Source: Actinobacteria bacterium RBG_16_68_21 (GTDB taxonomy: Bacteria; Actinomycetota; Acidimicrobiia; Spongiisociales; UBA11373). Taken from it: DNA of 42,219 nucleotides. Below the pieces are notes generated by a model. It was not told the DNA's origin. It made no database searches and saw only the letters and a list, made by a program, of their open reading frames with translations. The stretch spans positions 18,680 through 60,898 of the forward strand of contig MELR01000016.1 of the NCBI GenBank assembly GCA_001767695.1, read 5' to 3'. The first letter of the stretch is position 1. Each line of letters opens with the position of its first letter. This document shows, in pieces, positions 3,501 through 19,323 of this stretch. The position numbers and the translations under genes are program-made.

Positions 3501-3592
3501 GGCAATTGGCAATTCGTAACTCGCAATGCGCAATGCGCAATGCGCAATTGGGGTTGCCGAGGCGCGATCCAGTCTGGCGTCTGGCGTCTACT
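3501..3592. repeat. Two heptamer tandem repeat arrays (cgcaatg-like x7; gtctggc-like x3)
   Basis: ggcaatt ggcaatt cgtaact cgcaatg cgcaatg cgcaatg cgcaatt (3501-3549) and gtctggc gtctggc gtctact (3572-3592). Confidence 0.85.
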
Positions 3593-4340
3593 CGCTCACC
3601 GCGTCGCGGCGACGCAGCAGCGAGGCCAGGGCCGTCACCGTCAGTGCGGCGATCACGACGACCTTGGCGACGGCGCCCCAGGTCCCCGGGTCGAGGCTGC
3701 CCATCACGTCGCCGAGTTGGCGGAGTGACTCCGGGACCATGGCGGTGTAGGCGGTGATCCCGATGCGAAACAGGGAGACGTTGGCGAGCCCGGGGGCGGC
3801 GAACGTGATGCTCGACTCCCAGATGAACACGTAGACCAGGCCGATGAGCACGGCGCGTGATGTCAGGTGGCCGAGAAGCAGGAACACCGCGGTGTACGCC
3901 ATCGTGGAGATCGCCACCCCGATGATCACCGGGAGGAGGGGGCTGTAGTCGCCGGAGCGAACCCCGAGTGCCACCACGGCGACGACGCCCGAGCCGACCA
4001 CGATCGCGGTCGCCGCCAGCCACGAAGCCACCAGCTTGGCGCCGACGATCGACGACCGGGGAATCGGCCGGAGCAGCAGGAACGACAGCGTCCCGTCGCG
4101 CCGCTCGTCACCCATTGCCCCCGATCCGATGACCAGGGAGCAGATGGGCAGCACCATGAGGAACAAGATGGCAAACGGAGCATCGTGGAACTGATTCATC
4201 GCGGCGCGAGCGGTCAGGTTCCGCGAGGAGAGCCACATGACCAGCGCCGGGATCAGCCCCACCAGCCCGAGCGCCAGGATCCGCTTCCCCCCGAGCGCCT
4301 GCCGGAGGCTGACCCGCACGATGGCGAGCACGGCTCTCAT
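3588..4340 (-). CDS. ABC-2 type transporter permease
   Basis: About 6 TM segments and the motif GAMGDERRDGTLSFLLLRPIPRSSIVGAK. ATGA overlap with the upstream ATPase. Confidence 0.88.
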   Translation of the reverse strand: MRAVLAIVRVSLRQALGGKRILALGLVGLIPALVMWLSSRNLTARAAMNQFHDAPFAILFLMVLPICSLVIGSGAMGDERRDGTLSFLLLRPIPRSSIVGAKLVASWLAATAIVVGSGVVAVVALGVRSGDYSPLLPVIIGVAISTMAYTAVFLLLGHLTSRAVLIGLVYVFIWESSITFAAPGLANVSLFRIGITAYTAMVPESLRQLGDVMGSLDPGTWGAVAKVVVIAALTVTALASLLRRRDAVSE

Positions 4341-5272
4341 CGCCGGCGCACCAGATAGCGGAACACGCTCTCCAGCGACTCGTCCTCCGGCTCGAACCCG
4401 GCGAGCCTGCTGTCGAGGTCGCGGGCGATCCGCGGCACCGTGACTCCCAGGGCACCGAGGTCGGAGGTCTCCACATGGAGCACCGCCCCGGTCACCGTCA
4501 CCGACGACACGACGTCGGTCTCCATCAGCATCGCGGCCATACGGCGCCCTTCGCCGGTTTCGATGCGAACCCGGTAGGGGATGTCGGCCATGGCCCTACG
4601 GATGGCGGTGATGTCGCCGGCCGCGGCCAGGCGCCCATCCACAACCGCCAGGACGCGGTCGGCCATCCGTTCCACCTCGGCGAGCACATGGGAGGAGACG
4701 ATCACCGTCTTCCCGGACGCCCCCAAACCGCGGAAGAGATCGATGAGGTGCGCCCGCTGCAGGGGATCGGTGCCGTTGAGCGGCTCATCGAGCACGAGCA
4801 CGTCGGGAGTCGTCACCAGCGCAGCCGCCACCTTGGCGCGCTGGCGCATGCCCTTGCTGTAGCCGGAGATGGGGCGGTCGGCCGCGGCCTGGAGGTCGAC
4901 CGAGGTGATGGCGCCATCCACCGCGGACCTGGGCGCTCCCGCCAGATCGGCCGCATAGCGGACGAAGTCCCGTCCGGTGAGGAACGGGTAGACCGCGTCC
5001 TCCTCGGGGACCAGCACAGTCTTGGCGTACACCGAGGGGTCGCGGCGGGGATCGGCCCCGAGGACGCGGACACTCCCGTCGGACGGCCGCAGCAGCCCGC
5101 AGATCATCCGTAACAGCGTGGTCTTTCCGGCACCGTTTGGGCCGAGGAGGCCGGTGATTCCGCGCCCGAACGAGCACGAGATGTCGGATACCGCGACCTT
5201 CTGACCGAACCATTTGGAGACGGACTCCACCTCGATGATCGGATCGGCGACGATCGCGGGCGACGAGGTCAT
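4337..5272 (-). CDS. ABC transporter ATP-binding protein
   Basis: Walker A GPNGAGKTT, signature YSKGMRQR, Walker B VLVLDEP, SSH. Start MTSSPAIV at 5272 overlaps the permease stop. Confidence 0.93.
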   Translation of the reverse strand: MTSSPAIVADPIIEVESVSKWFGQKVAVSDISCSFGRGITGLLGPNGAGKTTLLRMICGLLRPSDGSVRVLGADPRRDPSVYAKTVLVPEEDAVYPFLTGRDFVRYAADLAGAPRSAVDGAITSVDLQAAADRPISGYSKGMRQRAKVAAALVTTPDVLVLDEPLNGTDPLQRAHLIDLFRGLGASGKTVIVSSHVLAEVERMADRVLAVVDGRLAAAGDITAIRRAMADIPYRVRIETGEGRRMAAMLMETDVVSSVTVTGAVLHVETSDLGALGVTVPRIARDLDSRLAGFEPEDESLESVFRYLVRRR

Positions 5273-6132
5273 GAAGCCTTCTTCTGTCGGACGACGAGCA
5301 ACAGCCCGAACAACGCCGCGAGGGTGAGGATCACGACCAGCGAGACCACGGGCTCGTAGCCGGCCTGCTCCGGAATCCAGGTGCGCGCGCTGTCGCCGAG
5401 GATCCAGTCCTTGACGTATCCGGGCTGCTGGTTCAAGGCCAGGAGCCCGGTGGCGTTGAACCCGGCGTCGACCAGGGCGGCTGCGGCCCCACCCGACACG
5501 ATCGTGACGCCGAGGAAGAGCACTGAAGCAAGCGACCCGCGCTTGGCGGTCGAGGCGATCAGCAGCGCGAGTGGGGCGAACGCCAAGAAGTACACGAACG
5601 AGGCCAGCAACGTCTGCCATAGGGTCGGCCAGTTGTCGGCGACGTACGACCCGAAGCCGGCGACCCAGGCGCGACCGAGGAACAACACGAGATGAGGGAG
5701 CCACAGGAAGCCGACCACCACCGTGGCGAGGGACAGGGTGCGTCCGACCAGGTAGTCGATCGTGGTCAGTGGTCGGGAGGCATACACCGCCAGCGTGCCG
5801 CTCACCCGGTCGGGGATGAGCAGTTCCCCGGCGGCGAGTGCAATGAAGATCAGGGCCATCACCCCGGTGAGCTCGAAGTACTGGGAGTGTCCGAAGAAGG
5901 TCAGTTCGGTGTCGAATTGGCCGGCGACCACACCGATGGCGACGAAGAACAAGGCGGGCATGACCGCGATCGACATGAGGACGATCGGAAAGACCTTGCG
6001 ACGCATCCGGCGCCGCAGGCCGAGAACCCGCCTCAACCCGTCGCGATACAGCGCCCAACGCGCTCCGCCCCGGCCCAACCGTGGCCCCTCATGGGGGCGA
6101 TACCCGAGATCGAAGACGACGCCCTCAGCCAC
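5269..6132 (-). CDS. ABC-2 type transporter permease
   Basis: Multi-TM protein with LLIPDRVSGTLAVYASRPLTTIDYLVGR. GTG 6132 overlaps the ATPase stop. Confidence 0.85.
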   Translation of the reverse strand: MAEGVVFDLGYRPHEGPRLGRGGARWALYRDGLRRVLGLRRRMRRKVFPIVLMSIAVMPALFFVAIGVVAGQFDTELTFFGHSQYFELTGVMALIFIALAAGELLIPDRVSGTLAVYASRPLTTIDYLVGRTLSLATVVVGFLWLPHLVLFLGRAWVAGFGSYVADNWPTLWQTLLASFVYFLAFAPLALLIASTAKRGSLASVLFLGVTIVSGGAAAALVDAGFNATGLLALNQQPGYVKDWILGDSARTWIPEQAGYEPVVSLVVILTLAALFGLLLVVRQKKAS

Positions 6133-7036
6133 CTTGGTCCTCTCCCATGAACACGTCCTCCAGGGTGGTGCGTCTCGCCCCCAACCTCCTGAGGGCGGCC
6201 CCGGTCTCGGCGAGAGCGTCGCGGGCGGCGACGAACGGGTCGCCTCCCTCCAACTTGAGCCGAACCTCGGCTCCGCTGACCTCGACCGATCCACCGCGGC
6301 GCCGCAGCGCCTCCACGACCGGCGTGGGATCGCCGATTATCTCTAATTCGAGTTCGTCCGTGGTGGACAGGTCGGTCATCGGACCGGAGCGGAGGACGTG
6401 ACCACCGTCGAGCATCACCACCCAATCGCAGGTTCGCTCGATGTCGGTGAGCACGTGTGAGGAAATGATCGCGTTGATCCCGAAACCCTCGAGGCGGACG
6501 ATGAGGTCCAGCATCTCCTCCCGGCCCTCGGGATCGAGTCCGGCGGTCGGTTCGTCGAGCAACACGAGCTGCGGGTCGTGGACGATCGCCTGGGCGAGTT
6601 TCGCCCGTTGTTTCATCCCGGTGGAGAATTCCCCGATGTAGCGGAATCTCTCTTCATGCAGCCCGACCAGGCCGAGGACGTCGCTGGCGTGTTGGCGCGC
6701 CGCCCTCGTCGGCAGTCCGCCCAGCTCGGCGGCATAGATGAGGAAGTCGGCGGCCGTCTGATCCGGGGGAAGGCAGTCACCCTCGGGCATCCACCCGACC
6801 TTCGACCGGATGTCGAGCAGCCCGGTGGCCACATTGGTCCCAAGGACCTCGACCGACCCGCTGGCGGCGGGGAGGACCCCGAGGAGGATCTTGAGCAGCG
6901 TGGTCTTCCCGGCGCCGTTGGCGCCCACCAACCCGATACGGCCTGCGGGCACCACGATCGAGATGCCGTCGATTGCCACGATCTCGCCGTAGGCGAATCG
7001 CAGCCCGGTGACGACAACGACGGGGGTGGCGTCCAT
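6125..7036 (-). CDS. ABC transporter ATP-binding protein
   Basis: GANGAGKTT, FSTGMKQR, LVLLDEPTAGLDP, SSH. Confidence 0.93.
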   Translation of the reverse strand: MDATPVVVVTGLRFAYGEIVAIDGISIVVPAGRIGLVGANGAGKTTLLKILLGVLPAASGSVEVLGTNVATGLLDIRSKVGWMPEGDCLPPDQTAADFLIYAAELGGLPTRAARQHASDVLGLVGLHEERFRYIGEFSTGMKQRAKLAQAIVHDPQLVLLDEPTAGLDPEGREEMLDLIVRLEGFGINAIISSHVLTDIERTCDWVVMLDGGHVLRSGPMTDLSTTDELELEIIGDPTPVVEALRRRGGSVEVSGAEVRLKLEGGDPFVAARDALAETGAALRRLGARRTTLEDVFMGEDQGG

Positions 7037-7046
7037 TGGAAGGGGA

Positions 7047-7088
7047 CGTTACCCGTCGCCCGTCGCCCGTCGCCCGTTACCCGTCGCC
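7047..7088. repeat. Heptamer tandem repeat (cgtcgcc/cgttacc x6)
   Basis: cgttacc cgtcgcc cgtcgcc cgtcgcc cgttacc cgtcgcc. Overlaps the 3' end of the HTH gene and the ABC promoter region. Confidence 0.85.
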
Positions 7089-7690
7089 GTCGTCGGCGAT
7101 CTTCGCCACCACCCTCGGATCCTGCCCGTCCGGCGGCTCGGAGACGGGCTCGGCGCTGCAATCGACGCCTCCGGACCATCCACCCGCTCCTTGAGCTGGT
7201 CGCGCTCGGCGCGGATCTCGCCGAGTCGTTCCCTGAGGAACGCGGCCTCGGTCTCGGCCTTGGCGGCGCGTTCCCGGGCCTCGGCGAGACGCAGGCCGGC
7301 GTCGTGGAGGTTGCCCAGCTGGTCCATGAGTCGGTCCCAGGCGTCCCGGGGCACGAGCATCGCCGTGCCGTCGGACGTCGGTCCGGTGGCCCCGGGGCGT
7401 GCCCCCGCCGGCTCATGGGTGGTGCGGGCGAGTCGGTGGGCGATCGACTCGGGAGTCACCATCCACCGGCGACCACGAGCCCCCTGGGCCATCACGGCGT
7501 CGATGAGCCCTTTGCGTGCCCATCCTCCCAGGGTGGCGACGGTGACGCCGAAGCGGTGCTCGGCCTCTCGCAGCGGGATTCGTCCCCCGATCGGGGCCGC
7601 CTCATCGGTCGCCGTCGCATCGGCGCGCGGCCCCCGGCGCAAAGGCGCCTCTGGTCTCTTGTCCCAGATGAGGGCGGAATCGTCTGCCAG
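7049..7690 (-). CDS. MerR/excisionase-like HTH + coiled-coil protein of unknown function
   Basis: IPLREAEHRFGVTVATLGGWARKGLIDAV...GRRWMV (wHTH-like), heptad-rich LAEARERAAKAETEAAFLRERLGEIRAERDQL, C-terminal RIRGWWRR. Start is uncertain: TTG 7642, or in-frame CTG 7690 with a strong SD. Confidence 0.7.
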   Translation of the reverse strand: MADDSALIWDKRPEAPLRRGPRADATATDEAAPIGGRIPLREAEHRFGVTVATLGGWARKGLIDAVMAQGARGRRWMVTPESIAHRLARTTHEPAGARPGATGPTSDGTAMLVPRDAWDRLMDQLGNLHDAGLRLAEARERAAKAETEAAFLRERLGEIRAERDQLKERVDGPEASIAAPSPSPSRRTGRIRGWWRRSPTTATGNGRRATGDG

Positions 7691-7762
7691 GATCGTCCCT
7701 TTCCTTGTCCGTATTCAGGTTAGGCCGGGGCAGGGGGGCCCTTTCGTGGAATAATCCACGGC

Positions 7763-8362
7763 GTGGCCCGTCGCGACCTCCCAACCGAAGACGCCGTGCG
7801 CGCATTGGTGACCCGAGTGGTCGACGCCGTGGCCGTCCCGACGGCCGCTCCCCCGGCGCCTGAGGAGGCGGCCCGACCGGCGCAACCGGGGGGAGAAGGG
7901 GCGATCGCCATCGGCGCCGACCACGGCGGATTCCGGCTGAAAGAGCGGATCGGTTTCCGGCTGCGCGAGTCGGGCCGGGTGGTGGTCGATTGCGGCACCG
8001 ATTCGACGGAAGCCGTCGACTACCCGGACTTCGCCCTGGCCGTCGCCGAGAAGGTGGCCTCGGGGGAATGTTCCACCGGGATCGTCATCGACGGCGCCGG
8101 AATCGGGTCCTCCATGGTCGCCAACAAGGTGCCGGGGGTGAGGGCCGCCCTGTGCTACGACCTCTCGTCGGCTCGCAACAGCCGGGAGCACAACCATGCC
8201 AATGTGCTCACGCTGGGCGCCGGGCTCATCGGTGAAGCGCTGGCGTGGCAGATCGTCGAGGAGTGGCTGGCGACACCCTGGGCCGGGGGCCGCCATGCCG
8301 CTCGCGTTGCCAAGATCGATGCGATCGATCGCCGCCACTCTCATCTCGGGGAGGCGATGTGA
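7763..8362 (+). CDS. rpiB: RpiB/LacAB-family sugar-phosphate isomerase with N-terminal encapsulation peptide (BMC cargo)
   Basis: [43 protein letters not shown]-terminal helix [16 protein letters not shown] plus a Pro/Ala linker. Confidence 0.9.
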
Positions 8363-9216
8363 CCGACCGCGAAGCAATCATCGAGGCCGTCACCCGAGAG
8401 GTGCTCGCCACCCTGGCCGGTGAGACCTGGGACGAGTGTCTTGCCTGTGTCGGGGATTGTGTCGTGCACTCCGCGCAGAAGGTCCGCTCCGTCCTGGCCG
8501 CGGGAGCCAGCCGCGTCTCGTTCAATGGATTCGGTGCTGACGTGCCGTCCGACCTGGCGGGGTTCATCGACCACACCCTTCTCAAGCCGGACGCGACCGC
8601 GAGCGAGATCGATCGGATGTGCGCCGAGGCGGTCGAGTACCAGTTCGCCTCGGTGTGCGTCAACCCGACTTGGGCCAAGCGGGTGGCAGAAGCGCTGAAG
8701 GGATCGGACGTCGTGGCGTGTTGCGTCGTCGGCTTCCCCTTTGGAGCCACACCACCCGAGATCAAGGCAATGGAGGCGCGTCGGGCGATCCGGGACGGGG
8801 CACGTGAGATCGACATGGTGGTCAACATCGGTGCTCTCAAGTCGGGGGACTACGCGACCGTGGAGCGCGACATCGCCGGGGTCGCCGAGGCGTGCCGCGA
8901 GGCGGGAGCGCTGTGCAAGGTGATCCTGGAGACCGTGTTGCTCACCGACGAGGAGAAGGTGATCGCCTCGCGGCTGGCGGTCAAGGCGCACGCCGACTTC
9001 GTCAAGACCTCGACCGGGTTCGCCGGTGGCGGGGCCACCGTGTACGACGTGGCGTTGATCCGCGAGGCGGTGGGTCCCAAGGTCGGGGTGAAGGCGTCCG
9101 GGGGTATACGCAGCGCCGAGGACGCCCGTCAAATGATCGCCGCCGGCGCCACCCGGATCGGTGCCTCGGCCGGAATCCAGATCGTCACGGAAGGAGCGTC
9201 GAGTGGGCAGTATTGA
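8359..9216 (+). CDS. deoC: Deoxyribose-phosphate aldolase (class I) with encapsulation peptide and Cys-rich N-terminal extension
   Basis: [38 protein letters not shown] (Schiff-base Lys), [21 protein letters not shown] overlap with rpiB. Confidence 0.95.
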
Positions 9217-9829
9217 CCTTCGGGGCTATTCGTTCCTCGACAGCCTCCAACCCCAGTACGCCGCATTCCTCGGGACCGTGGCCCAGGGATTCCTGCCCCT
9301 CGCCGGGGATGCTTCGCTGTACGTGGAGATCTCCCCGGGGATCGAGATCAACCGCATGACCGACGTAGCGCTGAAGGCCACCAAGGTGAAGCCGGGCATG
9401 CAGATCGTCGAGCGCTACTTCGGACTCCTCGAGGTCCACTCGCCGTCGCAAGCGGAGGTCCGGGCGGCGGGCGCCGCCATCCTCGCCGAGATCGGCGCGG
9501 CGGAGTCGGAGCGCATCAAGCCGCGGATCGCCTCCAGTCAGATCATTCGCCGGATCGACGATCACCAGGCGCAGCTGATCAATCGCATGCGCCACGGCCA
9601 GATGATCATCCCCGGCCAGACGCTGTACCTCCTCGAGATGGAGCCCGCCTCGTACGCGGCGATTGCCGCCAACGAAGCCGAGAAGGCGGCCAACATCAAT
9701 GTTCTCGAGGTGAGATCGTTCGGTTCCCTCGGCCGGGTCTACCTCGGCGGTGAAGAGCGGGATATCGACGTCGGCTGGAGGGCGGCGGTAGCGGCGCTCG
9801 AGGGTCTCGAAGGGAGAGACGCCGGCTGA
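9203..9829 (+). CDS. BMC shell protein, tandem-domain permuted (BMC-Tdp, CsoS1D/CcmP-like)
   Basis: [85 protein letters not shown] at 9191-9196. Confidence 0.9.
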
Positions 9830-9864
9830 ATCGGGAGTCGGAGAGAAAGGGAGAGCGAAAGCTC

Positions 9865-10164
9865 ATGGCTGAAGCACTCGGAATGATCGAATGCCGCGGG
9901 TTTGCGGCGATGGTTGAGGCCGCCGACGCGATGGTGAAGGCGGCGAAAGTGGAGCTCGTCTCGTACGAGAAGACCGGCGGCGGTTACGTCACCGCGGTGG
10001 TACGCGGCGACGTCGCCGCGGTCAAGGCCGCGATCGACGCCGGCACCCGCGGCGCCGAGAAGGTCGGCGAGGTCGTCTCCACGCACGTCATCGCCCGTCC
10101 GCATGTGAACATCGACCTGGTCCTTCCTCTCGGCCGCGCCGACGAGGCCGCGGCCGAGTCCTGA
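9865..10164 (+). CDS. BMC shell hexamer (BMC-H, PduA/EutM-like)
   Basis: [26 protein letters not shown]...[19 protein letters not shown]...HVIARPH. Confidence 0.97.
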
Positions 10165-10177
10165 GCCCGGCACCGTC

Positions 10178-10465
10178 ATGTTGCTCGGCCGGGTAGCGGG
10201 GACGCTGGTCGCCTCGAACAAGGAGCCCACGATGGAAGGGCTCAAGTTCCTGGTGATCAAACAGCTAGATGTCGACGACGCCGAGACCGGCGGCTACGTG
10301 ATCGCCGCCGACGCGGTCGGGGCCGGCGTCGGCGAGGTCGTCATGTTTGCCACCGGCTCGTCGGCGCGCCAGACCGCGGCCACCCGGGATCGCCCGTGTG
10401 ATGCGGTGGTGATGGCGATCGTCGACACGTGGGAAATCGGCGGTGAGGTGAGATACACCAAGTGA
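10178..10465 (+). CDS. BMC vertex pentamer (BMC-P, EutN/CcmL family)
   Basis: [12 protein letters not shown]...[13 protein letters not shown]...GSSARQ...DAVVMAIVD. Confidence 0.95.
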
Positions 10466-11913
10466 AGCCCTACACCGACGAAGAGGTCCAGGCGATCATC
10501 GCCCGGGTGCGCTCCCGTCTCGGCGGGACGCCCGATCGGGTCCCGATCCACCCGCACATCCCCGTCGAAATCCCCGATGCGGATCTCGGGGAGGGGCTGT
10601 ATCCCACGATCGACGACGCCGTGGATGCCGCCGAGCAGGCGCAACTGAAGTACGAAGGTGCCGGCACCGATGTGCGCGAGGCCGTGATCGCTTCGATCCG
10701 CCGGGTGATGCTCGACAACGCCGAGCACCTGGCGAAGATGGCGCACGAGGAGACCGGCCTCGGTCGTACCGAGGACAAGTTGCGCAAGAACATCCTGGTC
10801 GCCACCCGCACGCCCGGTCCCGAGGATCTGGCTCCCCTCATCGAGACCGGCGACGGCGGCATGATGCTGACGGAGCACGCTCCCTTCGGGCTCATCGGCT
10901 CGATCACGCCGACGACCAATCCCACCGCCACCGTCATCAACAACACGATCGCCATCCTCAGCGGGGGCAACGCGGTCGTCTTCAACGTTCACCCCAATGC
11001 CAAGCGGGTCTCGGCGGAGAATGTTCGCCTCCTCAACCGGGCGGTCATCGCCGCCGGCGGCCCCCCCGATCTGGTCACCGCCATTCCCGATCCGACGATC
11101 GAGAGCGCCCAGGCGCTCATGCATCATCCCAAGGTGAGAGTGCTGTTGGTCACCGGCGGACCCGGCGTGGTCCGGGAGGCTCTCAAGACCGACAAGCGCG
11201 CCATCACTGCCGGCCCCGGGAACCCGCCGGCGGTCGTCGACGAGACCGCCGACATCGAACGTGCCGGTCGGGACATCGTCGCCGGAGCGTCCTTCGACAA
11301 CAACGTGATCTGCACGGATGAGAAGACCGGGATCGCGGTGCGGTCGATCGCCGACGAGTTGATCCGGGCCATGGCGCGACACGGCGCTCATGTGCTCAAG
11401 GAGCACGAACTGCGCAAGGTCGAGCGGGTCATTTTCGAGACGATGGGTCCGCCGGGGAAGCCGGGAATCATCAACCGGGCCTGGATAGGGAAGAACGCAG
11501 CAGAGATCGCTGCCGCCGCCGGGGTCGATGTCGACGGCGATCCGCGCCTGCTGCTCGCCGACGTACCCAACGATCACAACCTGGTGTGGACCGAGCAGAT
11601 GATGCCGGTGTTCCCGATCACCAGGGTCGGCGACGTCGACGCCGCCATCGATCTCGCCATCCGTTCCGAGCACCGATTCCGTCATACCGCGTCGATCCAC
11701 TCGACCAACGTGGCCACGATCACCCGGATGGCGCGCTCGATCAACGTCTCGATCTTCATCGCCAACGGTCCCAACTACGCCGGGCTCGGCCGGGGCGGCG
11801 AGGGGTTCACCTCCTTCTCCATCGCCAGTCCCACCGGCGACGGGATGACCCGGCCGCTCACCTTCACCAGGGAACGGCGCATCGCCGTGGTCGGCGCCCT
11901 GAGGATCATCTGA
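10462..11913 (+). CDS. CoA-acylating aldehyde dehydrogenase (EutE/PduP-like) with encapsulation peptide
   Basis: [51 protein letters not shown] (catalytic Cys), [10 protein letters not shown]-terminal helix [17 protein letters not shown]. Confidence 0.93.
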
Positions 11914-11914
11914 C

Positions 11915-12508
11915 ATGCATCCGGCACTCGCCCTTCTCGAATTCGAATCGGTGGCGGCGGGCATCGTCGCCGGCGACCTCATGGTCAAACGAGGGCCGGT
12001 GGCGGAGCTTCTCGCCGGGACCGTCCATCCCGGGCACTACCTGGTGATGGTGGTGGGCACGGTGGGTGACGTCGAGGAGGCGATCGCCGCCGGGAGGGAG
12101 GCGTCTCCCGCCGCTCTGATCGACGAGGTGTTCCTTCCCGACGTGCATCCCGACGTCATCGGCGCGATCCATGGGACCCGGGTCGCCGGTGCGGGCGAGG
12201 CTCTCGGGGTGATCGAGACGCACACGGTGGCGGCGACCATCGAGGCTGCTGACGCCGGGGTCAAGGGCGCCCACGTCTTTCTGATGGAGGTCAACCTCGC
12301 CGACGGTCTCGGCGGCCGGGCCTACGCCCTCTTCACCGGCGCGGTGCCGGATGTGGCGGCCGCGGTGTCGATCGGAGCCGGTCGGGTGACGCCCGCCAAA
12401 CTGATCGGAGCCGTCGTCATTCCGCAACTGCACGGGGAGATGGGCAACAACCTGCTCGCTGCCCGCCACTTCGGGGTGAGGCTGGGCCGGGGCGATGCAA
12501 CTCGCTGA
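11915..12508 (+). CDS. BMC shell trimer, single-layer PduT-like (BMC-Ts)
   Basis: Two BMC domains: PALALLEFESVAAGIVAGDLMVK and EALGVIETHTVAATIEAADAGVK...GLGGRA. Confidence 0.9.
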   Translation: MHPALALLEFESVAAGIVAGDLMVKRGPVAELLAGTVHPGHYLVMVVGTVGDVEEAIAAGREASPAALIDEVFLPDVHPDVIGAIHGTRVAGAGEALGVIETHTVAATIEAADAGVKGAHVFLMEVNLADGLGGRAYALFTGAVPDVAAAVSIGAGRVTPAKLIGAVVIPQLHGEMGNNLLAARHFGVRLGRGDATR

Positions 12509-12764
12509 GGTGATCGGCACCGTCGTGGCCAGCGTCAAGTACGAGGGGCTCGAGGGCGTCAAGTTCCTCGTCGTGCAGCCCCTCGATCGTGACCGCCAAC
12601 CCGTGGGACGTCCGGTGGTGGCAGCAGATGCGGTGGCGATGGCGGGTCCGGGCGAGCTCGTCTACGTGGTCGGCTCCCGGGAAGCAGCCCTCGCCATGCC
12701 CGAGCCCTTCGTCCCGGTGGATCATGCCATCGTCGGTATCGTCGACGCGGTCGATCGATCGTGA
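12495..12764 (+). CDS. BMC vertex pentamer (BMC-P)
   Basis: AEVIGTVVASVK...AADAVAMAGPGELV...SREAA...PVDHAIVGIVD. Confidence 0.93.
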   Translation: MQLAEVIGTVVASVKYEGLEGVKFLVVQPLDRDRQPVGRPVVAADAVAMAGPGELVYVVGSREAALAMPEPFVPVDHAIVGIVDAVDRS

Positions 12765-13060
12765 AGATCGGGCGGGTGCACGGCACCGTGGTCTCGACCA
12801 TCAATCATCCGATCTACGACCACCGCAGGCTGCTCATGTGCGACATGCTCGATGCCGACGGCGCCGATACCGGCGATTATCTGATCTGCGTCGATTCCGT
12901 CGGCGCCGGCGCCGGGGAGACCGTGCTGATCATCGACGAGGGGAATTCGGCGCGGCAGGTGGTGGGAGACACCACCGCCCCGATCAGAGCCGTCATCGTG
13001 GGGATCGTCGACGAGCTCATCGTCGATGGGACGACCCACCGGGTGGTCGACGGGGCCTGA
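12761..13060 (+). CDS. BMC vertex pentamer (BMC-P)
   Basis: GRVHGTVVSTINH...CVDSVGAGAGETVL...EGNSARQ...PIRAVIVGIVD. GTGA overlap with the previous gene. Confidence 0.93.
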   Translation: MKIGRVHGTVVSTINHPIYDHRRLLMCDMLDADGADTGDYLICVDSVGAGAGETVLIIDEGNSARQVVGDTTAPIRAVIVGIVDELIVDGTTHRVVDGA

Positions 13061-13107
13061 GGTCTCTGCGGCCGGCACTGGGGCGGTTCCTCTCTAGCCT
13101 CCAGTGG

Positions 13108-13491
13108 GTGAGGCGCCTCATCCCGCTGTTCGTCCTGTTGCTCGGGGCCTGCAACTCGGCCGCCCCAACGCCGACCACCGCCCCTCCGGGGCCCACCACG
13201 ACGACGACCATCGTCGGTGACACGTGCGAGCGGCTCGCCCAGGACGCCGCCGACTATCTCGAGGTCGTGGTCCAGGTCCTCAACGAGACACCCACCGACG
13301 TCTTCACCGATCGGTCGCAGTGGCCCGAGGCGTTGGTGGCGCTCACCCAGCAAGGGACCGATCTGGACGCCCGCTCCGACGCGATGCGCTGTGATCCCGC
13401 AGACATGCAGGCGGCGGTGTTCGCCCTGGCCGACATCGATCCGAAGAGCCCGCTCGCCCGGTATCTCGCCGAACTGCTCGGCCTCGGCTAG
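13108..13491 (+). CDS. Putative lipoprotein
   Basis: MRRLIPLFVLLLGAC lipobox, Thr/Pro linker, helical domain with two Cys. GTG 7 nt after TAGCCT. Confidence 0.75.
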   Translation: MRRLIPLFVLLLGACNSAAPTPTTAPPGPTTTTTIVGDTCERLAQDAADYLEVVVQVLNETPTDVFTDRSQWPEALVALTQQGTDLDARSDAMRCDPADMQAAVFALADIDPKSPLARYLAELLGLG

Positions 13492-14186
13492 CCGTCGGTC
13501 GCAAGCAGCTGCGCGGCCGCGCCGTCGAGCAGCCATAGCGGATCACGACTGGCACGGGCGACCACGGCGGCGGGCAGCTCACTCGACCCATCCAGGATCT
13601 CGGCGACGATCGCCGCCTTCGATGCTCCGGCCACGAGGAACACCGTTCGTCGGGCCCGGCCGAGCAGCGCCCGGGTGGCGGTGAGCCTCCAGCCGATTCC
13701 TTCGACGAACGTCGCCACGTAGTCGCGGGTCGTTTCGGTGAGAGCGGTCGACCCCGGGAACAGCGAGGCGGTGTGCCCGTCTTGACCGACACCGAGCAGT
13801 ACCAGGCCGGGCTCGAGGTGGCCCGAAACGCCCCTGGGAAGCAACCTCGCCAACTCGGCCTCATATGCCTCGGCGGCCGCCGCGGGATCGTCCCTCCAGG
13901 GAACCTCATGGAGGGCGGCGGGGACCGCCGCGAACAGCGCCCGCCGTGCCATGCCGGCGTTGCTGTCGGGATGATCGGCCGGCACATGGCGCTCGTCGGT
14001 CATCCAGCCATCGACCTGTCGCCAGGGCACCGGCCGGCGGCGCAGGCTCTCGTAGGAGCGACGCGGCGTCGATCCCCCGGCGAGGCCGACGCTGCGGCGA
14101 CCGTCGCGAACGCTCAACCACCCCGCCACCTCATCGGCGGCAGCCTCGGCGAGCGCCTGCGGCGATGGAAACACTCGTACGGTCAT
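13488..14186 (-). CDS. pgl: 6-phosphogluconolactonase
   Basis: GLAGGSTP, DERHVPADHPDSNAGM, LLGVGQDGHTASLFP, RLTAT, VAGASKA. Confidence 0.92.
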   Translation of the reverse strand: MTVRVFPSPQALAEAAADEVAGWLSVRDGRRSVGLAGGSTPRRSYESLRRRPVPWRQVDGWMTDERHVPADHPDSNAGMARRALFAAVPAALHEVPWRDDPAAAAEAYEAELARLLPRGVSGHLEPGLVLLGVGQDGHTASLFPGSTALTETTRDYVATFVEGIGWRLTATRALLGRARRTVFLVAGASKAAIVAEILDGSSELPAAVVARASRDPLWLLDGAAAQLLATDG

Positions 14187-14312
14187 TGACCGGCTGATCC
14201 TAGGGCGGGGTGCGGTCGCGTCCCGGGGGGATACCCTCGGGATCGTGACAACACCGAGCCAGCGTCGTTCCGATCGCTCCGGGCCTGAGGACAGCGGCGA
14301 GGTCGGCGCGTG

Positions 14313-14975
14313 GTGAGGGTTCCCGGGAAGATCGAGTGGTCCCCGGGCCGGGTCGTGACGACGGCTGTCGCCGGAGGCAGCGATGGCCCGGCGGTCGTGG
14401 TGCTCGCCCACGGGGCCGGCGCGGGGCGAACCCACCCTTTCATGGCGGCTCTGAGTGGGCGGCTGGCCGCCGGAGGCCTGCAAGTGGTGACCTTCGACTA
14501 CCCGTACATGGCGGAGGGACGCCGCGCTCCCGATCGCCTCGAGACGCTGGTTGCTGCCCATCGGGCGGTGATCGCCGCGGTGCCGCACTCGGGGCGCGGG
14601 CTGGTTCTCGCCGGCAAGTCGATGGGTGGCCGGGTCGCCTCGCATCTCACCGACGTTCCCTGCGACGGGTTGGTGTTCTTCGGCTATCCCCTCGTTGCGG
14701 TCGGCAAGACGGCGCCGCGGGACACCAGCCACCTCGGAGGGCGGTCGGTGCCGATGCTCTTCATCCAAGGGGAACGAGATCGGCTGGCTCCGCTCGAGGT
14801 CCTGCGACCCGTCGTCGGGCGATTGCCCCACGCCGATCTGGTGGTGATCTCCGATGCCGATCACTCGTTTCGAGTGCCGAAGCGCTCCGGGCGGACGGAC
14901 GCCGACGTGATCGATCAGCTCGCCACCGCGGTGCTGGCATGGGGGCCTGCCGGGGGCCGGGCGTCTCCGGGATAG
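14313..14975 (+). CDS. Alpha/beta hydrolase (KANL3/Tex30-like)
   Basis: LAHGAGA, FDYPY, GKSMGGR nucleophile elbow, GYPL, QGERD, DADHSF. Start at GTG 14310 or 14313. Confidence 0.88.
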   Translation: MRVPGKIEWSPGRVVTTAVAGGSDGPAVVVLAHGAGAGRTHPFMAALSGRLAAGGLQVVTFDYPYMAEGRRAPDRLETLVAAHRAVIAAVPHSGRGLVLAGKSMGGRVASHLTDVPCDGLVFFGYPLVAVGKTAPRDTSHLGGRSVPMLFIQGERDRLAPLEVLRPVVGRLPHADLVVISDADHSFRVPKRSGRTDADVIDQLATAVLAWGPAGGRASPG

Positions 14976-14982
14976 CAGGCGT

Positions 14983-17493
14983 CTATCGCTCCCCGCGACC
15001 GCGAGCGCGCAGCACGGCCCGATCCCGCTCGTAGGTGAGGAGAGGGAGGGCGTCGGGGATCGCCATCCATCGAATCTCGTCTACTTCGCCATTCGGCACG
15101 AAGTCGCCCTCGATGACGTCCATCTCGAAGTAGTGGACCACCTTGGTGCGATCGGCGCGGTCGGCGTACTCGACGGTACCGACCGCAGCGCCCAGTCGAC
15201 ACCTGTGACCGGTTTCCTCGAGCACCTCGCGAAGCGCACCTTCGGGGGCGGTCTCGCCTTCGTCCAGCTTCCCCTTGGGGAAGGTCCAGTCGTCGTAGCG
15301 GGGCCGGTGCACGAGTAGCACCTCGTCGTTGCCACCTTCGCCGACGCGACCGACGATGCCTCCGGCGGCGACCACCAACTCCGGGACTTCGAGGGCGCGT
15401 CCCGGATCGGGCAGCGCGCCCTGCGCCCTGGCGGAGGCGAGCTCCTGGAAACGGCGCTGGGCGTTGATGCCTCTCCCCGCCGGGACCTTCGACCAGACGT
15501 CGTCGACCAGCTCCCAGGCGAGCCGGTCGTCGGCGAAGCACACGATCAGCAACTCCTCGAGACGGCGCCGCAACCGGGCGGGATAGACCGGGACCAGAGT
15601 CTCCACCCTCCCGTTGAGATTGCGCGGCATCATGTCCGACGATCCGAGGAAGTACTCGGCATCATCGCCCGACCCGAACCGGAACACGCGGGAGTGCTCC
15701 AGGAACCGCCCGACAATCGATCGAACCGTGATGTTGTCCGACATCCCGGCGACGCCGGGACGGAGGCAGCAGATGCCCCGCACGATGAGGTCGACCGCCA
15801 CGCCGGCAGCAGAGGCGGCGTAGAGCTCCTCGATGATCGAAGGATCGACCAGGTGGTCGATCTTCATGGTGATCGCCCCGGCGGAACCCAGCTCGGCCTG
15901 ACCCCTGATCCGCTCGACGATCGCTTCCCGCAGCGAGGCCGGGGCGACGAGGAGCCGGCGGTAGTCGCGCTGGCGGCCGTAGCCGGTGAGTACGTTGAAC
16001 AACTCCGACAGGTCTGCCCCGATCTCCTCATCGGCCGTGAGATAGCCGAGGTCCTCGTAGATGCGGGCGGTCTTCGGGTTGTAGTTGCCGGTGCCGATGT
16101 GGCTGTAACGACGCAGCCCGTCGCCCTCGCGGCGCACGACCAGCGCGAGCTTGGCGTGGGTCTTGAGGCCGGCGACGCCGTACACCACGTGGACCCCGGC
16201 TTCTTCGAGGATCCTCGCCCAGGCGATGTTCGCCTCCTCGTCGAAGCGGGCCTTGAGTTCCACCAGCACCACGACCTGCTTGCCGCTCCGGGCGGCGGCG
16301 ATCAGCGACTGCACGATCGACTGCTCTCCGCCCAGCGCGGGGTCTTCCGGATCCGAGGTGCGGTACAGGGTCTGCTTGATGGCGACGACGTTGGGATCAC
16401 GAGCGGCGCTGGCGATGAACGCCCCGATGGAGTTGGCGAACGACTCGTAGGGCAGGTGGACGAGGATGTCCCGCTGGGCGATCCGGTCGAGGACGCTCTC
16501 GCCGGCCTCGCGTCGGCTCAGGATCGGTTGCGTCGTGGGTGCCCATGGCTCCACCGACAGGTCGGGGCGGTCGATCGTCGTCAGCGACGCCAGCCCGGCG
16601 AGGGCGAGCATGCCGTCGTTGACGTACACGTCACCGGGGCCGATGCGCATCTCCTCCATGAGCAGTTCCGCCACCTCGTCGGGCATCGATCGGTCGATCT
16701 CGAGCCGCACAATCGTGCTGAAGCGGTAGCGGGTGTGGAGCAGCTCTTCCATCGCCTCGAGAAGATCCTCCGCCTCCTCCTCGATTGCCTGCTCGGCGCT
16801 TCTCGTCACCCGGAAGGCATGGCTGCTCACGACCTCCCGGCCGGGGAAGAGGGTCTCCAGTTGAGCGGCGATCAAGTACTCGACAGGGACCAGCACCGCG
16901 CCCGCTCCGCAGGAGAGCAGCCGGGGGAGAAGCGGCGGGACCTTGACCCGGGCGAAGTGGGAATCTCCCGTGGCCGGGTCGCGGACGGTGACGGCGAGGT
17001 TGAGCGACAGGTTCGATATGTAGGGGAAGGGGTGAGAGGGGTCGACGGCCAGCGGGGTGAGCATCGGGTAGATCTCACGTTCGAAGACCGCCTCGAGCTC
17101 CTTGCGATGCTTGAGGCGCAACGAGTCCCAGCCCCCGAGAGACAGGCCGTGGTCGGCGAGGGCCGGTATCAGCTCGTCCCCGAGAAGCCGCGCCATGCGG
17201 CCCTCGATGGCGATACAGCGCTCCCGAATGACGGCGAGCTGATCGGCGGGGCTCATCCCGTCCGGGCCGGTCGCCTCGACCCCGGTGGTCACCTGCTCGC
17301 GCAGGCCGGCGACCCGCACCTGGAAGAATTCGTCGAGGTTCCCGGCCACGATCGCGATGAATCGGATCCGTTCCAGCACGGGGAGGTTGGGGTCGGCCGC
17401 CATCGCCAGGATGCGCTCGAGATAGTCGAGCACGGACAGTTCGCGGTTCGTGTGTCTGGCCGGCAAACTCGGCTCCCCGGACTGGCTGGTCAT
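14983..17493 (-). CDS. ppk1: Polyphosphate kinase 1 with fused C-terminal NUDIX (MutT1-like) domain
   Basis: NRELS, NLDEFFQVRVAGL, HPFPYISNLSLN, IKQTLYR, ELKARFDE, KTHAK, HIGTGNYN, RFLEHSR, then in frame HRPRYDDWTFPKGKLDEGETAPEGALREVLEETG. Confidence 0.93.
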   Translation of the reverse strand: MTSQSGEPSLPARHTNRELSVLDYLERILAMAADPNLPVLERIRFIAIVAGNLDEFFQVRVAGLREQVTTGVEATGPDGMSPADQLAVIRERCIAIEGRMARLLGDELIPALADHGLSLGGWDSLRLKHRKELEAVFEREIYPMLTPLAVDPSHPFPYISNLSLNLAVTVRDPATGDSHFARVKVPPLLPRLLSCGAGAVLVPVEYLIAAQLETLFPGREVVSSHAFRVTRSAEQAIEEEAEDLLEAMEELLHTRYRFSTIVRLEIDRSMPDEVAELLMEEMRIGPGDVYVNDGMLALAGLASLTTIDRPDLSVEPWAPTTQPILSRREAGESVLDRIAQRDILVHLPYESFANSIGAFIASAARDPNVVAIKQTLYRTSDPEDPALGGEQSIVQSLIAAARSGKQVVVLVELKARFDEEANIAWARILEEAGVHVVYGVAGLKTHAKLALVVRREGDGLRRYSHIGTGNYNPKTARIYEDLGYLTADEEIGADLSELFNVLTGYGRQRDYRRLLVAPASLREAIVERIRGQAELGSAGAITMKIDHLVDPSIIEELYAASAAGVAVDLIVRGICCLRPGVAGMSDNITVRSIVGRFLEHSRVFRFGSGDDAEYFLGSSDMMPRNLNGRVETLVPVYPARLRRRLEELLIVCFADDRLAWELVDDVWSKVPAGRGINAQRRFQELASARAQGALPDPGRALEVPELVVAAGGIVGRVGEGGNDEVLLVHRPRYDDWTFPKGKLDEGETAPEGALREVLEETGHRCRLGAAVGTVEYADRADRTKVVHYFEMDVIEGDFVPNGEVDEIRWMAIPDALPLLTYERDRAVLRARGRGER

Positions 17494-17551
17494 GAAATGG
17501 TATCGACGGTCGGCCGGGCCGGATTCAGCTGGGTTGCTGGAAGGCCGGTGG

Positions 17552-18001
17552 CTACTCGGGATCTCGCTCGAGGGCGGCGATCTTCTCGACGCGGCGGACA
17601 TGGCGGTCTTCGCCGGAGAATCTCGCCTCCAGGAAAGCCGCCACGATCTCGTCGACGAGGGCGATCCCGGTGACCCGAGCGCCGAGGGCGAGCACGTTTA
17701 CGTCGTCGTGCTCCACGCACTGGTGGGCGGTGTAGGCGTCGTAGGCCGCAGCGCAGCGCACCCCGTGCACCTTGTTGGCGGCGATGGCCGCGCCTGCTCC
17801 CGAGCCGCAGATCACGATGCCACGCTCGGCGCGGCCCCTGATGACGGCCCGGGCCACCGCAGCCGCGTAATCCGGGTAGTCGACCGGATCGGTGGTATGG
17901 GTACCCAGGTCGGTCACCGCGTGTCCCGCCGCGGCGGCGAATCTGGCAACGTGCTCCTTGAGCTCGTAACCGGCGTGGTCCGCGGCGATGGCGATGCGCA
18001 C
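17552..18001 (-). CDS. rpiB: Ribose-5-phosphate isomerase B (canonical, cytosolic)
   Basis: IAADHAG, VDYPD, ICGSGAG (catalytic Cys), ANKV, EHDDVNVL, RHVRR. No N-terminal extension. Confidence 0.93.
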   Translation of the reverse strand: MRIAIAADHAGYELKEHVARFAAAAGHAVTDLGTHTTDPVDYPDYAAAVARAVIRGRAERGIVICGSGAGAAIAANKVHGVRCAAAYDAYTAHQCVEHDDVNVLALGARVTGIALVDEIVAAFLEARFSGEDRHVRRVEKIAALERDPE

Positions 18002-18069
18002 CCTCGCAGGGTAGTGACCCTTCCTTCCCCGACAGGGGCCGAGTGCCCCGCCTCCCTTACAATCCGGGG

Positions 18070-19323
18070 ATGGCCCAGCTCGTCGTCACCGGAGGTGCTC
18101 GCCTCCGCGGAACGGTGGGAGTCCTCGGGGCGAAGAACGCGGTGCTCAAACATCTGGTGGCCACGCTGCTCGCCCCCGGGATCCATCGGATCGACAACAC
18201 CCCCGACATCGTCGACGTCCGCCTGATGGCGCAGGTGATATCCCACATCGGGGCGAGTTGCCGCTTCGAGGGGACCTCGGTCGAGGTCGAGGTTCCCGAC
18301 GAATTGCTGCCCGAGGCGCCGATCGACCTGGTTCGGCGGATGCGTGCCTCGATTCTGGTGCTCGGGGCCCTCCTCGCCCGATGCGGGGAAGCCCGGGTCG
18401 CCCTCCCCGGAGGCGACGACTTCGGCTCGCGCCCGATCGACATGCATCTCGAGGGGCTGGAGAGCATGGGCGCGGAGTTCGAGCTCGTCCACGGCGTGCT
18501 GCGCGCCATCGCCCCCGGCGGGCTTCACGGCGCCGAGGTGATGCTGGAGTTCCCGAGTGTTGGCGCCACCGAGAACCTGCTGCTCGCCTCGGTCATGGCC
18601 CGGGGGACGACGGTGATCGGCAACGCCGCCCGGGAGCCGGAGATCCAGGATCTTGCCGAGTTTCTCGTGACGATGGGAGCGGTGATCCGGGGCGCCGGCA
18701 CTTCGACGATCGAGATCGACGGCGTTGGCGGGCTCGACCCCGGTCGCCATCGCGCCGTACCCGATCGTCTCGAGGCGGGCACCTACCTGGTCGGGGCGGC
18801 CATCACCGGGGGAGAGGTGACGGTGATCGACTGTGTCCCCGGGCACCTTCGCATGGAGCTGCGCAAGCTCGGAGAGGCCGGATGCTCCTACGAGGTGGGC
18901 AAGGACTGGGTGACCCTCTCCGGTCCGGAGCGACCGCGCCCGGTCGACTTCGCGACGCTGCCCTATCCGGGGTTTCACACCGACATGCACCCGCAGATGG
19001 TCTCCCTGCTCTCCCTGGCGGAGGGCACCTCGGTGATCACGGAGAACATCTACGCAGCGCGGTTTCGCTACATCGGCGAATTGAACCGCCTCGGTGCCGA
19101 CGTCCAGATCGAGGGTCAGCACGTGATCATCCGGGGGGTGACGGCCCTTTCGGGCTGTCCGATCGATGCCTGTGACATCAGGGCGGGAGCGGCGCTCGTG
19201 CTCGCCGGTCTCGCCGCCGACGGCGTGACCACCGTCAACGATGCCGAGCACATCGACCGGGGATACGCCGACTTCCCCGGCAAGTTGGCGGCCCTCGGAG
19301 CGCACATCGAGCGTTTCGATTGA
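18070..19323 (+). CDS. murA: UDP-N-acetylglucosamine 1-carboxyvinyltransferase
   Basis: GAKNA, RMRASILVLG, LPGGDDFGSRPIDMH, SVGATEN, NAAREPE, PYPGFHTD, DIRAGAAL, IDRGY. Confidence 0.96.
   Translation: MAQLVVTGGARLRGTVGVLGAKNAVLKHLVATLLAPGIHRIDNTPDIVDVRLMAQVISHIGASCRFEGTSVEVEVPDELLPEAPIDLVRRMRASILVLGALLARCGEARVALPGGDDFGSRPIDMHLEGLESMGAEFELVHGVLRAIAPGGLHGAEVMLEFPSVGATENLLLASVMARGTTVIGNAAREPEIQDLAEFLVTMGAVIRGAGTSTIEIDGVGGLDPGRHRAVPDRLEAGTYLVGAAITGGEVTVIDCVPGHLRMELRKLGEAGCSYEVGKDWVTLSGPERPRPVDFATLPYPGFHTDMHPQMVSLLSLAEGTSVITENIYAARFRYIGELNRLGADVQIEGQHVIIRGVTALSGCPIDACDIRAGAALVLAGLAADGVTTVNDAEHIDRGYADFPGKLAALGAHIERFD

Follow-up and report, generated by a model that had tools for sequence, protein, structure and literature searches.

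What does a tight run of nine enzyme and shell genes build in a bacterium with a small genome, and what would it metabolise? The genes lie at positions 7763-13060 (+) of a 42,219-nucleotide stretch of contig MELR01000016.1 from Actinobacteria bacterium RBG_16_68_21; this whole stretch is referred to as the window. Our answer is that they probably form one operon that builds a sugar phosphate utilization (SPU) microcompartment in an Acidimicrobiia bacterium, turning deoxyribose-5-phosphate (dR5P) into acetyl-CoA and obtaining its cofactors by exchange with the cytosol. The organelle most likely breaks down deoxyribose phosphate from DNA. The locus belongs to a known, partly characterised class and is common in its lineage, and its interest comes from a minimal cofactor-free design, from its prevalence in Acidimicrobiia and from a cysteine motif in one of its enzymes.

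In order, the genes encode a protein resembling the ribose-5-phosphate isomerase (RPI) RpiB, a deoxyribose-phosphate aldolase (DERA, DeoC), a double-stacking tandem-domain bacterial microcompartment (BMC) shell protein (BMC-Tdp), a hexamer protein (BMC-H), a pentamer protein (BMC-P), a CoA-acylating aldehyde dehydrogenase (AldDH), a single-layer tandem-domain shell protein (BMC-Ts) and two further BMC-P, see Table 1. Pfam and NCBIfam matches, all nine on the plus strand, confirm the close or overlapping genes and the outer coordinates given by a preliminary description made from the letters of the sequence. With corrected starts the junctions are -4, -14, +35, +13, -4, +1, -14 and -4 nt, and this tight or overlapping spacing argues for one translationally coupled transcription unit. 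All nine reading frames are intact. Both corrected inner starts differ from those of the longest open reading frames (ORFs): deoC most likely starts at GTG 8359 and not at 8245 (GGGGAGG Shine-Dalgarno, 4-nt overlap with the rpiB stop, 285 aa), and the Tdp gene most likely at GTG 9203 and not at 9161 (GGAAGGAG Shine-Dalgarno, 208 aa). At its other end deoC overlaps the first shell gene by 14 nt. The host genome (2.03 Mb, 35 contigs, 91.8% complete) has four BMC-domain matches, all inside the operon, which is uniform in composition with its flanks (GC 0.67-0.70 over 6-16 kb).

Table 1. Genes of the operon and features directly upstream of it, in window positions.
Feature	Position	Strand	Evidence
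RpiB-like protein, 199 aa	7763..8362	+	PF02502 (LacAB_rpiB) 4.2e-53; TIGR01120 151 bits (cut-off 139)
DERA (DeoC), 285 aa, N-terminal extension	8359..9216	+	DeoC (PF01791) 2.4e-18; TIGR00126 271 bits (cut-off 117)
BMC-Tdp, 208 aa, CcmP-like double-stacking tandem-domain shell protein with Glu-Arg gating pair	9203..9829	+	NF053796 330.5 bits (cut-off 340); Pfam BMC 24.1 bits (cut-off 24.5)
BMC-H, 99 aa, only hexamer protein	9865..10164	+	PF00936 4.9e-30
BMC-P 1, 95 aa, pentamer vertex protein	10178..10465	+	PF03319 (EutN_CcmL) 1.9e-27
CoA-acylating AldDH, 483 aa	10462..11913	+	Aldedh 3.5e-35; PRK15398 (EutE/PduP type) 599 bits (cut-off 403)
BMC-Ts, 197 aa, PduT-like single-layer tandem-domain shell protein	11915..12508	+	tandem BMC 2.2e-27
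BMC-P 2, 89 aa	12495..12764	+	PF03319 7.9e-26; best PDB match 5v74_A1 2.8e-11
BMC-P 3, 99 aa	12761..13060	+	PF03319 1.9e-25; best PDB match EutN 2hd3 1.2e-16
Small helix-turn-helix protein, 197 aa from TTG, divergent	7049..7642	-	Pfam HTH_17 21.3 bits (cut-off 27)
CGTGG(G/A)ATAATC block	7745..7756	+	conserved in 11 of the 12 close relatives whose upstream regions were aligned

The same unit recurs in relatives. The loci compared are the best 80 of at least 600 stretches matched by the AldDH in public genome contigs, 576 of which encode AldDH relatives; gene content was read by tblastn with the window proteins, and residue pattern counts leave 3/80 Ts, 7/80 AldDH and 18/71 Tdp unmatched. Of these 80 nearest loci, 57 have the complete set of nine in unchanged order, so that the novelty of locus type entertained in the preliminary description does not hold. 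A further 21 loci show a contiguous part of this order, cut by a contig end, and the remaining two the same order with a fragmented Ts match. From the kept gene order and the AldDH identities of 63-91%, selection on the whole unit can be argued. In the two loci with a fragmented match (L040 and L042), BMC-Ts is matched in two or three pieces, and a frameshift, an insertion or strong divergence are possible.

The class to which these genes point was named in 2014 (Axen 2014, PMC4207490). In the main texts of later surveys, SPU comprises more than 280 loci from 26 phyla in seven subtypes (Sutter 2021, PMC8217296), and 206 SPU loci were curated (Dwyer 2024, PMC11585597). The window locus shares with the class a DERA, an acylating AldDH and an RpiB-type protein beside shell genes, the Asp-type RPI, the N-terminal extensions of DERA and AldDH and the number of three BMC-P. 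The first reading of the sequence as a complete, compact SPU-type operon thus stands, given the Asp-type RpiB, a DERA extension of about 65 residues and three BMC-P. As a class criterion the triplet consists of one protein each from the grey, the orange and one other colour clade; in the locus it consists of three divergent paralogues with 28-43% identity. The accompanying remark that SPU has little experimental characterisation is outdated, as the DERA and RPI of SPU6 have been purified and assayed: according to the main text of Dwyer 2024 (PMC11585597), this DERA is active on dR5P and a DERA-RPI complex is formed.

The DERA of the operon is the sole DeoC-family gene of the genome. Alignment to solved DERAs shows that the motifs of the catalytic Asp, the Schiff-base Lys and the second Lys are kept. 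The extension precedes the domain, and in alignments to solved free DERAs the match begins only at residue 94-109 of the long ORF. Among 63 database homologues of the N-terminal 70 residues, 44 are 285 aa long and all are 277-293 aa; where named by their source, homologues of the extension are deoxyribose-phosphate aldolases of Acidimicrobiia or Actinomycetota metagenome-assembled genomes (MAGs). An N-terminal extension of about 70 residues, folded as a helix and two strands and not present in free DERAs, is described for SPU DERAs in the main text of Dwyer 2024 (PMC11585597).

In the AldDH the catalytic Cys is likewise kept, as 'FDNNVIC' aligns with the catalytic Cys of 'FDNNLPC' in 5jfl (printed X in 5jfn). 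This entry is the best PDB match (1e-123) and is, we assume, a microcompartment-associated aldehyde dehydrogenase. The C-terminus of the AldDH is level with that of 5jfl and there is no C-terminal extension; the N-terminus is extended by about 45 residues, with a helix at about 10477-10521. DERA, AldDH and the RpiB-like protein all carry extra N-terminal residues not found in free homologues, and the three N-terminal helices are putative encapsulation peptides by analogy. The extensions of the operon's cargo agree with the description of SPU encapsulation peptides in the main text of Dwyer 2024 (PMC11585597).

The RpiB-like protein is less simple to interpret. Aligned to E. coli RpiB (1nn4), it keeps the His99 position and has Asp at the position of the catalytic Cys66 ('IDGAG' versus 'ICGTG'), and all 57 relatives in which the loop could be located have Asp there. 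An alignment of 55 sequences, from which L022 (low-complexity insert) and L064 (doubtful start) were excluded, contains 52 invariant columns, including the His99-equivalent region and D110. The extension, about 47 residues that are missing from free homologues, consists of a conserved helix, (P)(S/T)ExE(V/I)RxLVxRVV, at about 7784-7834, followed by a poorly conserved Pro/Ala linker. As stated in the main text of Dwyer 2024 (PMC11585597), 'all SPU RPIs' carry Asp for the catalytic Cys, and the SPU6 RPI has negligible ribose-5-phosphate (R5P) isomerase activity. With Asp at the catalytic Cys position, a working R5P isomerase is not to be assumed for the operon protein, although it had first been described simply as RpiB. 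By analogy to SPU6, it is more likely a DERA-binding packaging partner than an R5P isomerase. A second RpiB, encoded at 17555-18085 (-), 4.5 kb downstream of the operon, is of the Cys type ('ICGSG'; PRK05571 187.5 bits, TIGR01120 150 bits), which argues that the organism keeps a normal isomerase outside the organelle. A homologue of this downstream gene is found downstream in 10 related loci.

The RpiB-like protein could also be read as an active isomerase for an unusual substrate, with DERA cleaving its product or another 2-deoxy sugar phosphate, so that the organelle would handle a different sugar phosphate or aldehyde. The strong constraint on the protein, with more invariant columns than a pure scaffold might need, fits such an enzyme, as does the separate Cys-type RpiB kept in the genome. 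LacA also has Asp at the same position, and the RpiB family is broad in specificity according to the discussion of Dwyer 2024 (PMC11585597). However, the SPU6 RPI bears the same Asp, has negligible activity on R5P as an isomerase and complexes with DERA (PMC11585597, main text), the locus contains no transketolase or other linking enzyme, and the DERA scores well above the deoC equivalog cut-off. We consider a substrate other than dR5P unlikely.

The shell proteins have several affinities. The best natural PDB match of BMC-H is HO-5815 of Haliangium ochraceum (5djb, 7.5e-43; about 80% identity, 74/92 positions), and that of BMC-P 1 is the H. ochraceum BMC-P 5v74_A1 (3.4e-33; about 61%, 58/95 positions), both identities being manual counts on printed alignments. 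For these two proteins the likeness to the H. ochraceum shell noticed at first reading is therefore confirmed. BMC-Ts is nearer to PduT (3vcd, 3e-33) than to H. ochraceum 5dih (1.5e-23), and Tdp is nearer to cyanobacterial CcmP (4ht5, 2.9e-84; 5lsr, 7.9e-84) than to the related Tdps of H. ochraceum (5v76, 2.9e-75; HO-5816, 1e-68), with CsoS1D at 1.1e-54. BMC-P 2 and 3 are distant from all solved pentamers, and the paralogues share 38-43% (P2-P1), 28-31% (P2-P3) and 41% (P3-P1) identity. Judged by these matches, the shell as a whole is a mosaic. The Glu-Arg pair of CcmP, presumably its pore gate, is kept in the Tdp, where 'VER' aligns with 'IER'. BMC-Ts is without the Fe-S cysteine and has 'TVHPG' where Fe-S-binding Ts proteins have 'CPGK', the motif given for them in the main text of PMC12747264; in the 80 relatives this position is His in 47, Gln in 30, Cys in none and unmatched in 3.

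These similarities raise the question whether the locus is instead an HO-type microcompartment, as in H. ochraceum, of unknown function, with the DERA and RpiB genes merely adjacent. The identities of BMC-H and BMC-P 1 speak for this, as does the gene order Tdp-H-P-AldDH-Ts. The corresponding core order in H. ochraceum is presumably T-H-P-AldDH-T, which we take from the PDB names HO-5815 and HO-5816 and from the other locus tags; a literature search for the tags found nothing. The main text of Sutter 2021 (PMC8217296) further places the HO AldDH nearest to those of SPU5 and SPU7, and reports Tdp types and the BMC-P triplet as common to HO and SPU. However, in the HO type DERA lies outside the main locus (same source), whereas here the operon opens with the RPI and DERA genes, which overlap each other and the first shell gene (-4 and -14 nt) and stay attached in the 57 complete loci. 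Both proteins bear BMC-specific N-terminal extensions, the RPI bears the SPU-specific Asp, all three BMC-P are in the main locus and the Ts is PduT-like, not HO-like. Mere adjacency is in our opinion quite improbable, and since HO may be SPU-like in function, as Sutter 2021 (PMC8217296) suggests in its main text, the two readings largely converge.

Within the SPU class, the closest subtypes are SPU2 and SPU3, by elimination and on main-text criteria. SPU1, SPU4 and SPU7 are excluded, as these subtypes are without Tdp and with a phosphotransacylase (PTAC); the locus has Tdp and the genome is without PF06130. SPU5 has no RPI and is excluded by the RPI of the locus. In SPU6 the encapsulation peptide of AldDH is C-terminal, which excludes this subtype, as the extension here is N-terminal. 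SPU2 and SPU3 have, like the locus, a CcmP-like Tdp, and PduS is found in most of their loci, whereas the window locus and the genome are without it.

SPU6 (Chloroflexi bacterium GWB2_54_36), the source of the only bench-characterised SPU enzymes, otherwise resembles the locus: its operon is small and comprises RPI, DERA, AldDH, a single BMC-H, a single Tdp and three BMC-P, and PduS is missing; in the main text of PMC11585597, PduS is reported in all SPU subtypes but SPU6. Its GntR/UTRA regulator upstream has counterparts in 13 of the relatives' loci, whereas the window has a helix-turn-helix gene instead. Its BMC-H is of the 'fuchsia/pink' clade, in contrast to the HO-like BMC-H here, and the presence of Ts is another difference of our locus. 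The SPU-type 'archaeal microcompartments' of Hodarchaeales, as described in the main text of PMC12747264, are alike in the DERA and AldDH core, the BMC-P triplet and the proposed origin of dR5P from DNA; what sets them apart is MNdh, PTAC, a DERA fused to a flavoprotein and a Ts bearing the Fe-S motif CPGK, none of which is in the window locus.

We suggest the following scheme for the SPU-type organelle. An icosahedral shell would be formed by one BMC-H, the gated CcmP-like Tdp, the PduT-like Ts and the three BMC-P paralogues, and the cargo would consist of DERA, AldDH and the RpiB-like protein, each with an N-terminal targeting helix. dR5P, most likely derived from nucleosides via the nucleoside phosphorylases of the genome, would enter and be cleaved by DERA into glyceraldehyde-3-phosphate, which would exit, and acetaldehyde, which would be trapped inside and oxidised to acetyl-CoA by AldDH with NAD+ and CoA. 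The RpiB-like protein would be packaged through its binding to DERA, after the SPU6 example, and NAD(H) and CoA/acetyl-CoA would be exchanged with the cytosol through the gated Tdp pore. This chemistry, by which dR5P gives glyceraldehyde-3-phosphate plus acetaldehyde and then acetyl-CoA, had already been proposed at first reading; it is predicted here and agrees with the published SPU model.

The cofactor part of the scheme follows from what the genome lacks. Searches of the genome found no PduL-type phosphotransacylase (PF06130) and no RnfC_N domain; its sole Complex1_51K protein is NuoF, located between NuoE and NuoG, and by these two domain searches there is no PduS homologue in either locus or genome. 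Classical Pta gave a single match below threshold, and for an iron-containing alcohol dehydrogenase (Fe-ADH) there was no convincing match, only a weak one of 38.6 bits on another contig. Neither PTAC nor an alcohol dehydrogenase is in the locus. Five other operon-bearing genomes were searched for PduL and RnfC_N as well, and neither was found in any of the five. Without PTAC, alcohol dehydrogenase, or MNdh together with an Fe-S Ts, none of the three known ways of cofactor recycling in metabolosomes is encoded. As phosphotransacylase, PduS/MNdh and Fe-S Ts are all missing, NAD(H) and CoA/acetyl-CoA would have to pass between organelle and cytosol, for which the gated Tdp pore is the most plausible route. 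According to the main text of Dwyer 2024 (PMC11585597), a Tdp is typically encoded where an SPU locus has no PTAC, and acetyl-CoA is proposed to exit by its large gated pore.

A possible supply route of deoxyribose-1-phosphate is found on contig 7 at 114-118 kb (L086:6362-9805), where genes for a uracil phosphoribosyltransferase (UPRTase), a pyrimidine-nucleoside phosphorylase and a phosphorylase of the PNP/UDP family lie side by side. Two ORFs resembling glyceraldehyde-3-phosphate dehydrogenase (GAPDH) and electron-transfer flavoprotein (ETF) genes are located nearby.

Several points weigh against the SPU-type organelle as we propose it. A DeoB-type phosphopentomutase, which would convert deoxyribose-1-phosphate to dR5P, was not found in the 91.8%-complete genome, and the regeneration of NAD+ inside the shell is not explained by the scheme. 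With no PduS and yet an N-terminal AldDH extension, unlike SPU6, no described subtype fits cleanly on main-text criteria. In a hydrophobic-moment test the three N-terminal helices do no better than shuffles (0.31-0.54 of the shuffles reach the observed value), so that their reading as encapsulation peptides rests on position, conservation and analogy. Finally, shell assembly, encapsulation, substrate and cofactor route are all read from gene content, residues, conservation and distribution, and what can be said of expression and activity is likewise at the level of the sequence.

How widespread is the operon? The best 80 loci come nearly all from MAGs named Acidimicrobiia, Actinomycetota, Nitriliruptoraceae or Gaiellaceae. 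The nearest locus, L005 from an Acidimicrobiia MAG, also shares the flanking genes (ABC ATPase 88%, polyphosphate kinase 81%, 6-phosphogluconolactonase 69%), and in the AldDH tree the window falls in a starred clade whose 21 rows include 14 with an Acidimicrobiia label. The actinobacterial host supposed in the preliminary description is borne out by these nearest loci and this clade. The nine-gene operon also appears under labels of other phyla: Chloroflexi/Chloroflexia (L052, L077, L078), Acidobacteriota (L064, L069, L073, L079), Verrucomicrobiota (L041) and Gammaproteobacteria (L027). The AldDHs of these MAGs nest among actinobacterial rows; horizontal transfer, mis-binning or mislabelled records are possible.

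With BMC-P as the marker gene, 401 genomes of the class were surveyed, and 79 of them, counting the host genome and the unpublished G254, contain BMC-P genes. They are present in 11 of 12 other genomes of the host's own family and in 23/25, 8/9, 3/3, 5/5, 2/2 and 20/48 genomes of six related families, i.e. in 72 of 104 genomes of the seven families, and outside these in only 6 genomes of the class sample. In a sample of the phylum, again 401 genomes, the AldDH is matched at E <=1e-100 in 18; 7 of these, counting the host genome and the unpublished G488, have 65% identity or more. Together the family and phylum counts suggest that the operon is a lineage-wide trait of one Acidimicrobiia order and scattered elsewhere. 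A literature search found no paper discussing microcompartments in Acidimicrobiia. Among public sequencing runs, 20 DNA runs contain part of the stretch and five contain at least half of its words; these five are soil or sediment metagenomes from five studies, and one may be the source. No RNA run with it was found.

A silent or decaying remnant, no longer building an organelle, is a highly improbable reading of the operon: the missing RNA runs, the loss of PduS and of the Ts Fe-S cysteine, and a DERA cysteine motif that is reduced here (3 Cys and a His) and lost in 22 of 59 relatives would fit it, but the nine intact frames with their catalytic residues, the order and sequence conserved over 80 loci and the prevalence of BMC-P in the seven families speak against it.

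The cysteine motif lies in the DERA extension, between the helix (about 8365-8418) and the barrel, and reads C27-x2-C30-x3-C34-x2-H37 (8437-8472). Rows in which an upstream stop or a start codon was missing were excluded, which left 59 loci of close relatives for alignment. Of these, 37 have at least three Cys in the extension and 33 fit C..C...C..[HSG][SCN]; the other 22 have two or fewer, several of them through deletion of the segment. A profile of the extension alone, searched against 1.84 billion representative proteins, matches 168 proteins at E <=1e-3. Among the 150 matches listed, 111 show an xDH(T/S) motif preceded by 50 residues or more, and the 70 residues before this motif contain four or more Cys in 86, three in 8 and two or fewer in 17 of these microcompartment-type DERAs. 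CxxCxxxCxxxC is found in 26 and CxxCxxC in 24 of the same 111. One match is a 309-aa DERA named from Longilinea sp., which we take to be a member of Anaerolineae. The matches include fusions of RPI to DERA (P0122, P0126) and of a flavoprotein (PF02441) to DERA (P0130, P0132, P0140), the flavoprotein being N-terminal; the Cys cluster lies between the two fused domains.

The obvious hypothesis for such a motif is that it binds a metal or an Fe-S cluster. The main texts of PMC11585597, PMC8217296 and PMC12747264 do not mention cysteine, metal or Fe-S in the DERA extension, the word 'cysteine' occurring 0 times in that of the Hodarchaeales preprint PMC12747264, and figures or supplements may show it; a literature search gave no title or abstract pointing to a cysteine or metal site there. 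In the ESM Atlas, the best scores for DERA residues 1-72 are 0.76-0.79, and no structural model was found there. Erosion of the motif in this lineage runs parallel to the disappearance of PduS and of the cysteine in Ts. It can be speculated, tentatively, that the extension of microcompartment DERAs serves beyond targeting and forms a conserved four-Cys site (CxxCxxxCxxxC or C...CxxCxxC) binding a metal or Fe-S cluster, for which a redox or electron-relay role inside SPU organelles is suggested by its location, in some lineages, between the aldolase and a flavoprotein or RPI domain fused to it. The Acidimicrobiia lineage would then have a 'stripped' variant, a minimal aerobic metabolosome that depends on the gated Tdp pore for exchanging NAD(H) and CoA. 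If this is true, the site was cut to Cys3-His here, deleted in some relatives and lost alongside PduS/MNdh and the Ts Fe-S cysteine.

Regulation can be approached from the region upstream. The divergent helix-turn-helix protein has no NCBIfam match, and ESM Atlas feature matches of 0.93 to HTH_17 clusters are a lead only. In 19 related loci a homologous ORF lies upstream of rpiB at a median distance of 68 nt, and the protein is a candidate regulator of the operon. Besides the GntR/UTRA genes of 13 loci, six relatives have a MarR-like gene upstream on the operon strand. The CGTGG(G/A)ATAATC block ends 6-8 nt before the rpiB GTG (6 nt in the window), and there is no Shine-Dalgarno before this GTG at 7763; the block may be an extended -10-like element for a leaderless transcript. 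Short inverted repeats lie near the operon start. A scan of 7000-13800 for sigma-70 promoters and terminators gave 0 and 0, and Rfam has no match anywhere in the window. The ORFs 7008-7754(+) and 6578-7723(+), without family match where the conserved gene is on the minus strand, and ORF 13217-13684(+), without family match and without tblastn match in the 80 loci, were judged overprinted or spurious.

Further upstream, 3588-7036 (-) encodes two ABC-2-type transporter pairs (ATPase and permease) with no evident link to nucleoside uptake; the ATPase nearest the operon is kept upstream in 23 related loci. Downstream, the 872-aa ORF at 14983-17601 (-) is a fusion of polyphosphate kinase 1 (PPK1) with a C-terminal NUDIX domain (four PPK domains, NUDIX 2e-19), with homologues downstream of the operon in 15 related loci. 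In the long ORF at 13488-14864 (-), a 6-phosphogluconolactonase (pgl) domain covers only residues 234-444, and the N-terminal half overlaps the Abhydrolase_11 gene at 14289-14972 (+) (175 bits); pgl is thus probably about 230-250 aa and the long ORF an overcall. In L007, L011, L014, L024, L042, L053, L066, L079, L083 and others, the last BMC-P is immediately followed by one or two short ORFs that encode a signal peptide and a lipobox-like 'AACGDD'; they have no family match and are not present in the window.

The shell of H. ochraceum is the best-studied synthetic shell system, and a self-contained operon of 5.3 kb with a main shell protein sharing about 80% identity with its H. ochraceum counterpart is a convenient natural unit of cargo and shell to test. 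How NAD+ and CoA get to an AldDH inside a shell can be asked cleanly of this operon, as all known modules for recycling cofactors are missing, and for SPU organelles in general the cysteine motif of DERA provides a hypothesis that is specific and cheap. Acidimicrobiia commonly occur in soil, sediment and water. Given their abundance and the prevalence of BMC-P among them, the scavenging of deoxyribose or DNA through this organelle may be a widespread Acidimicrobiia trait.

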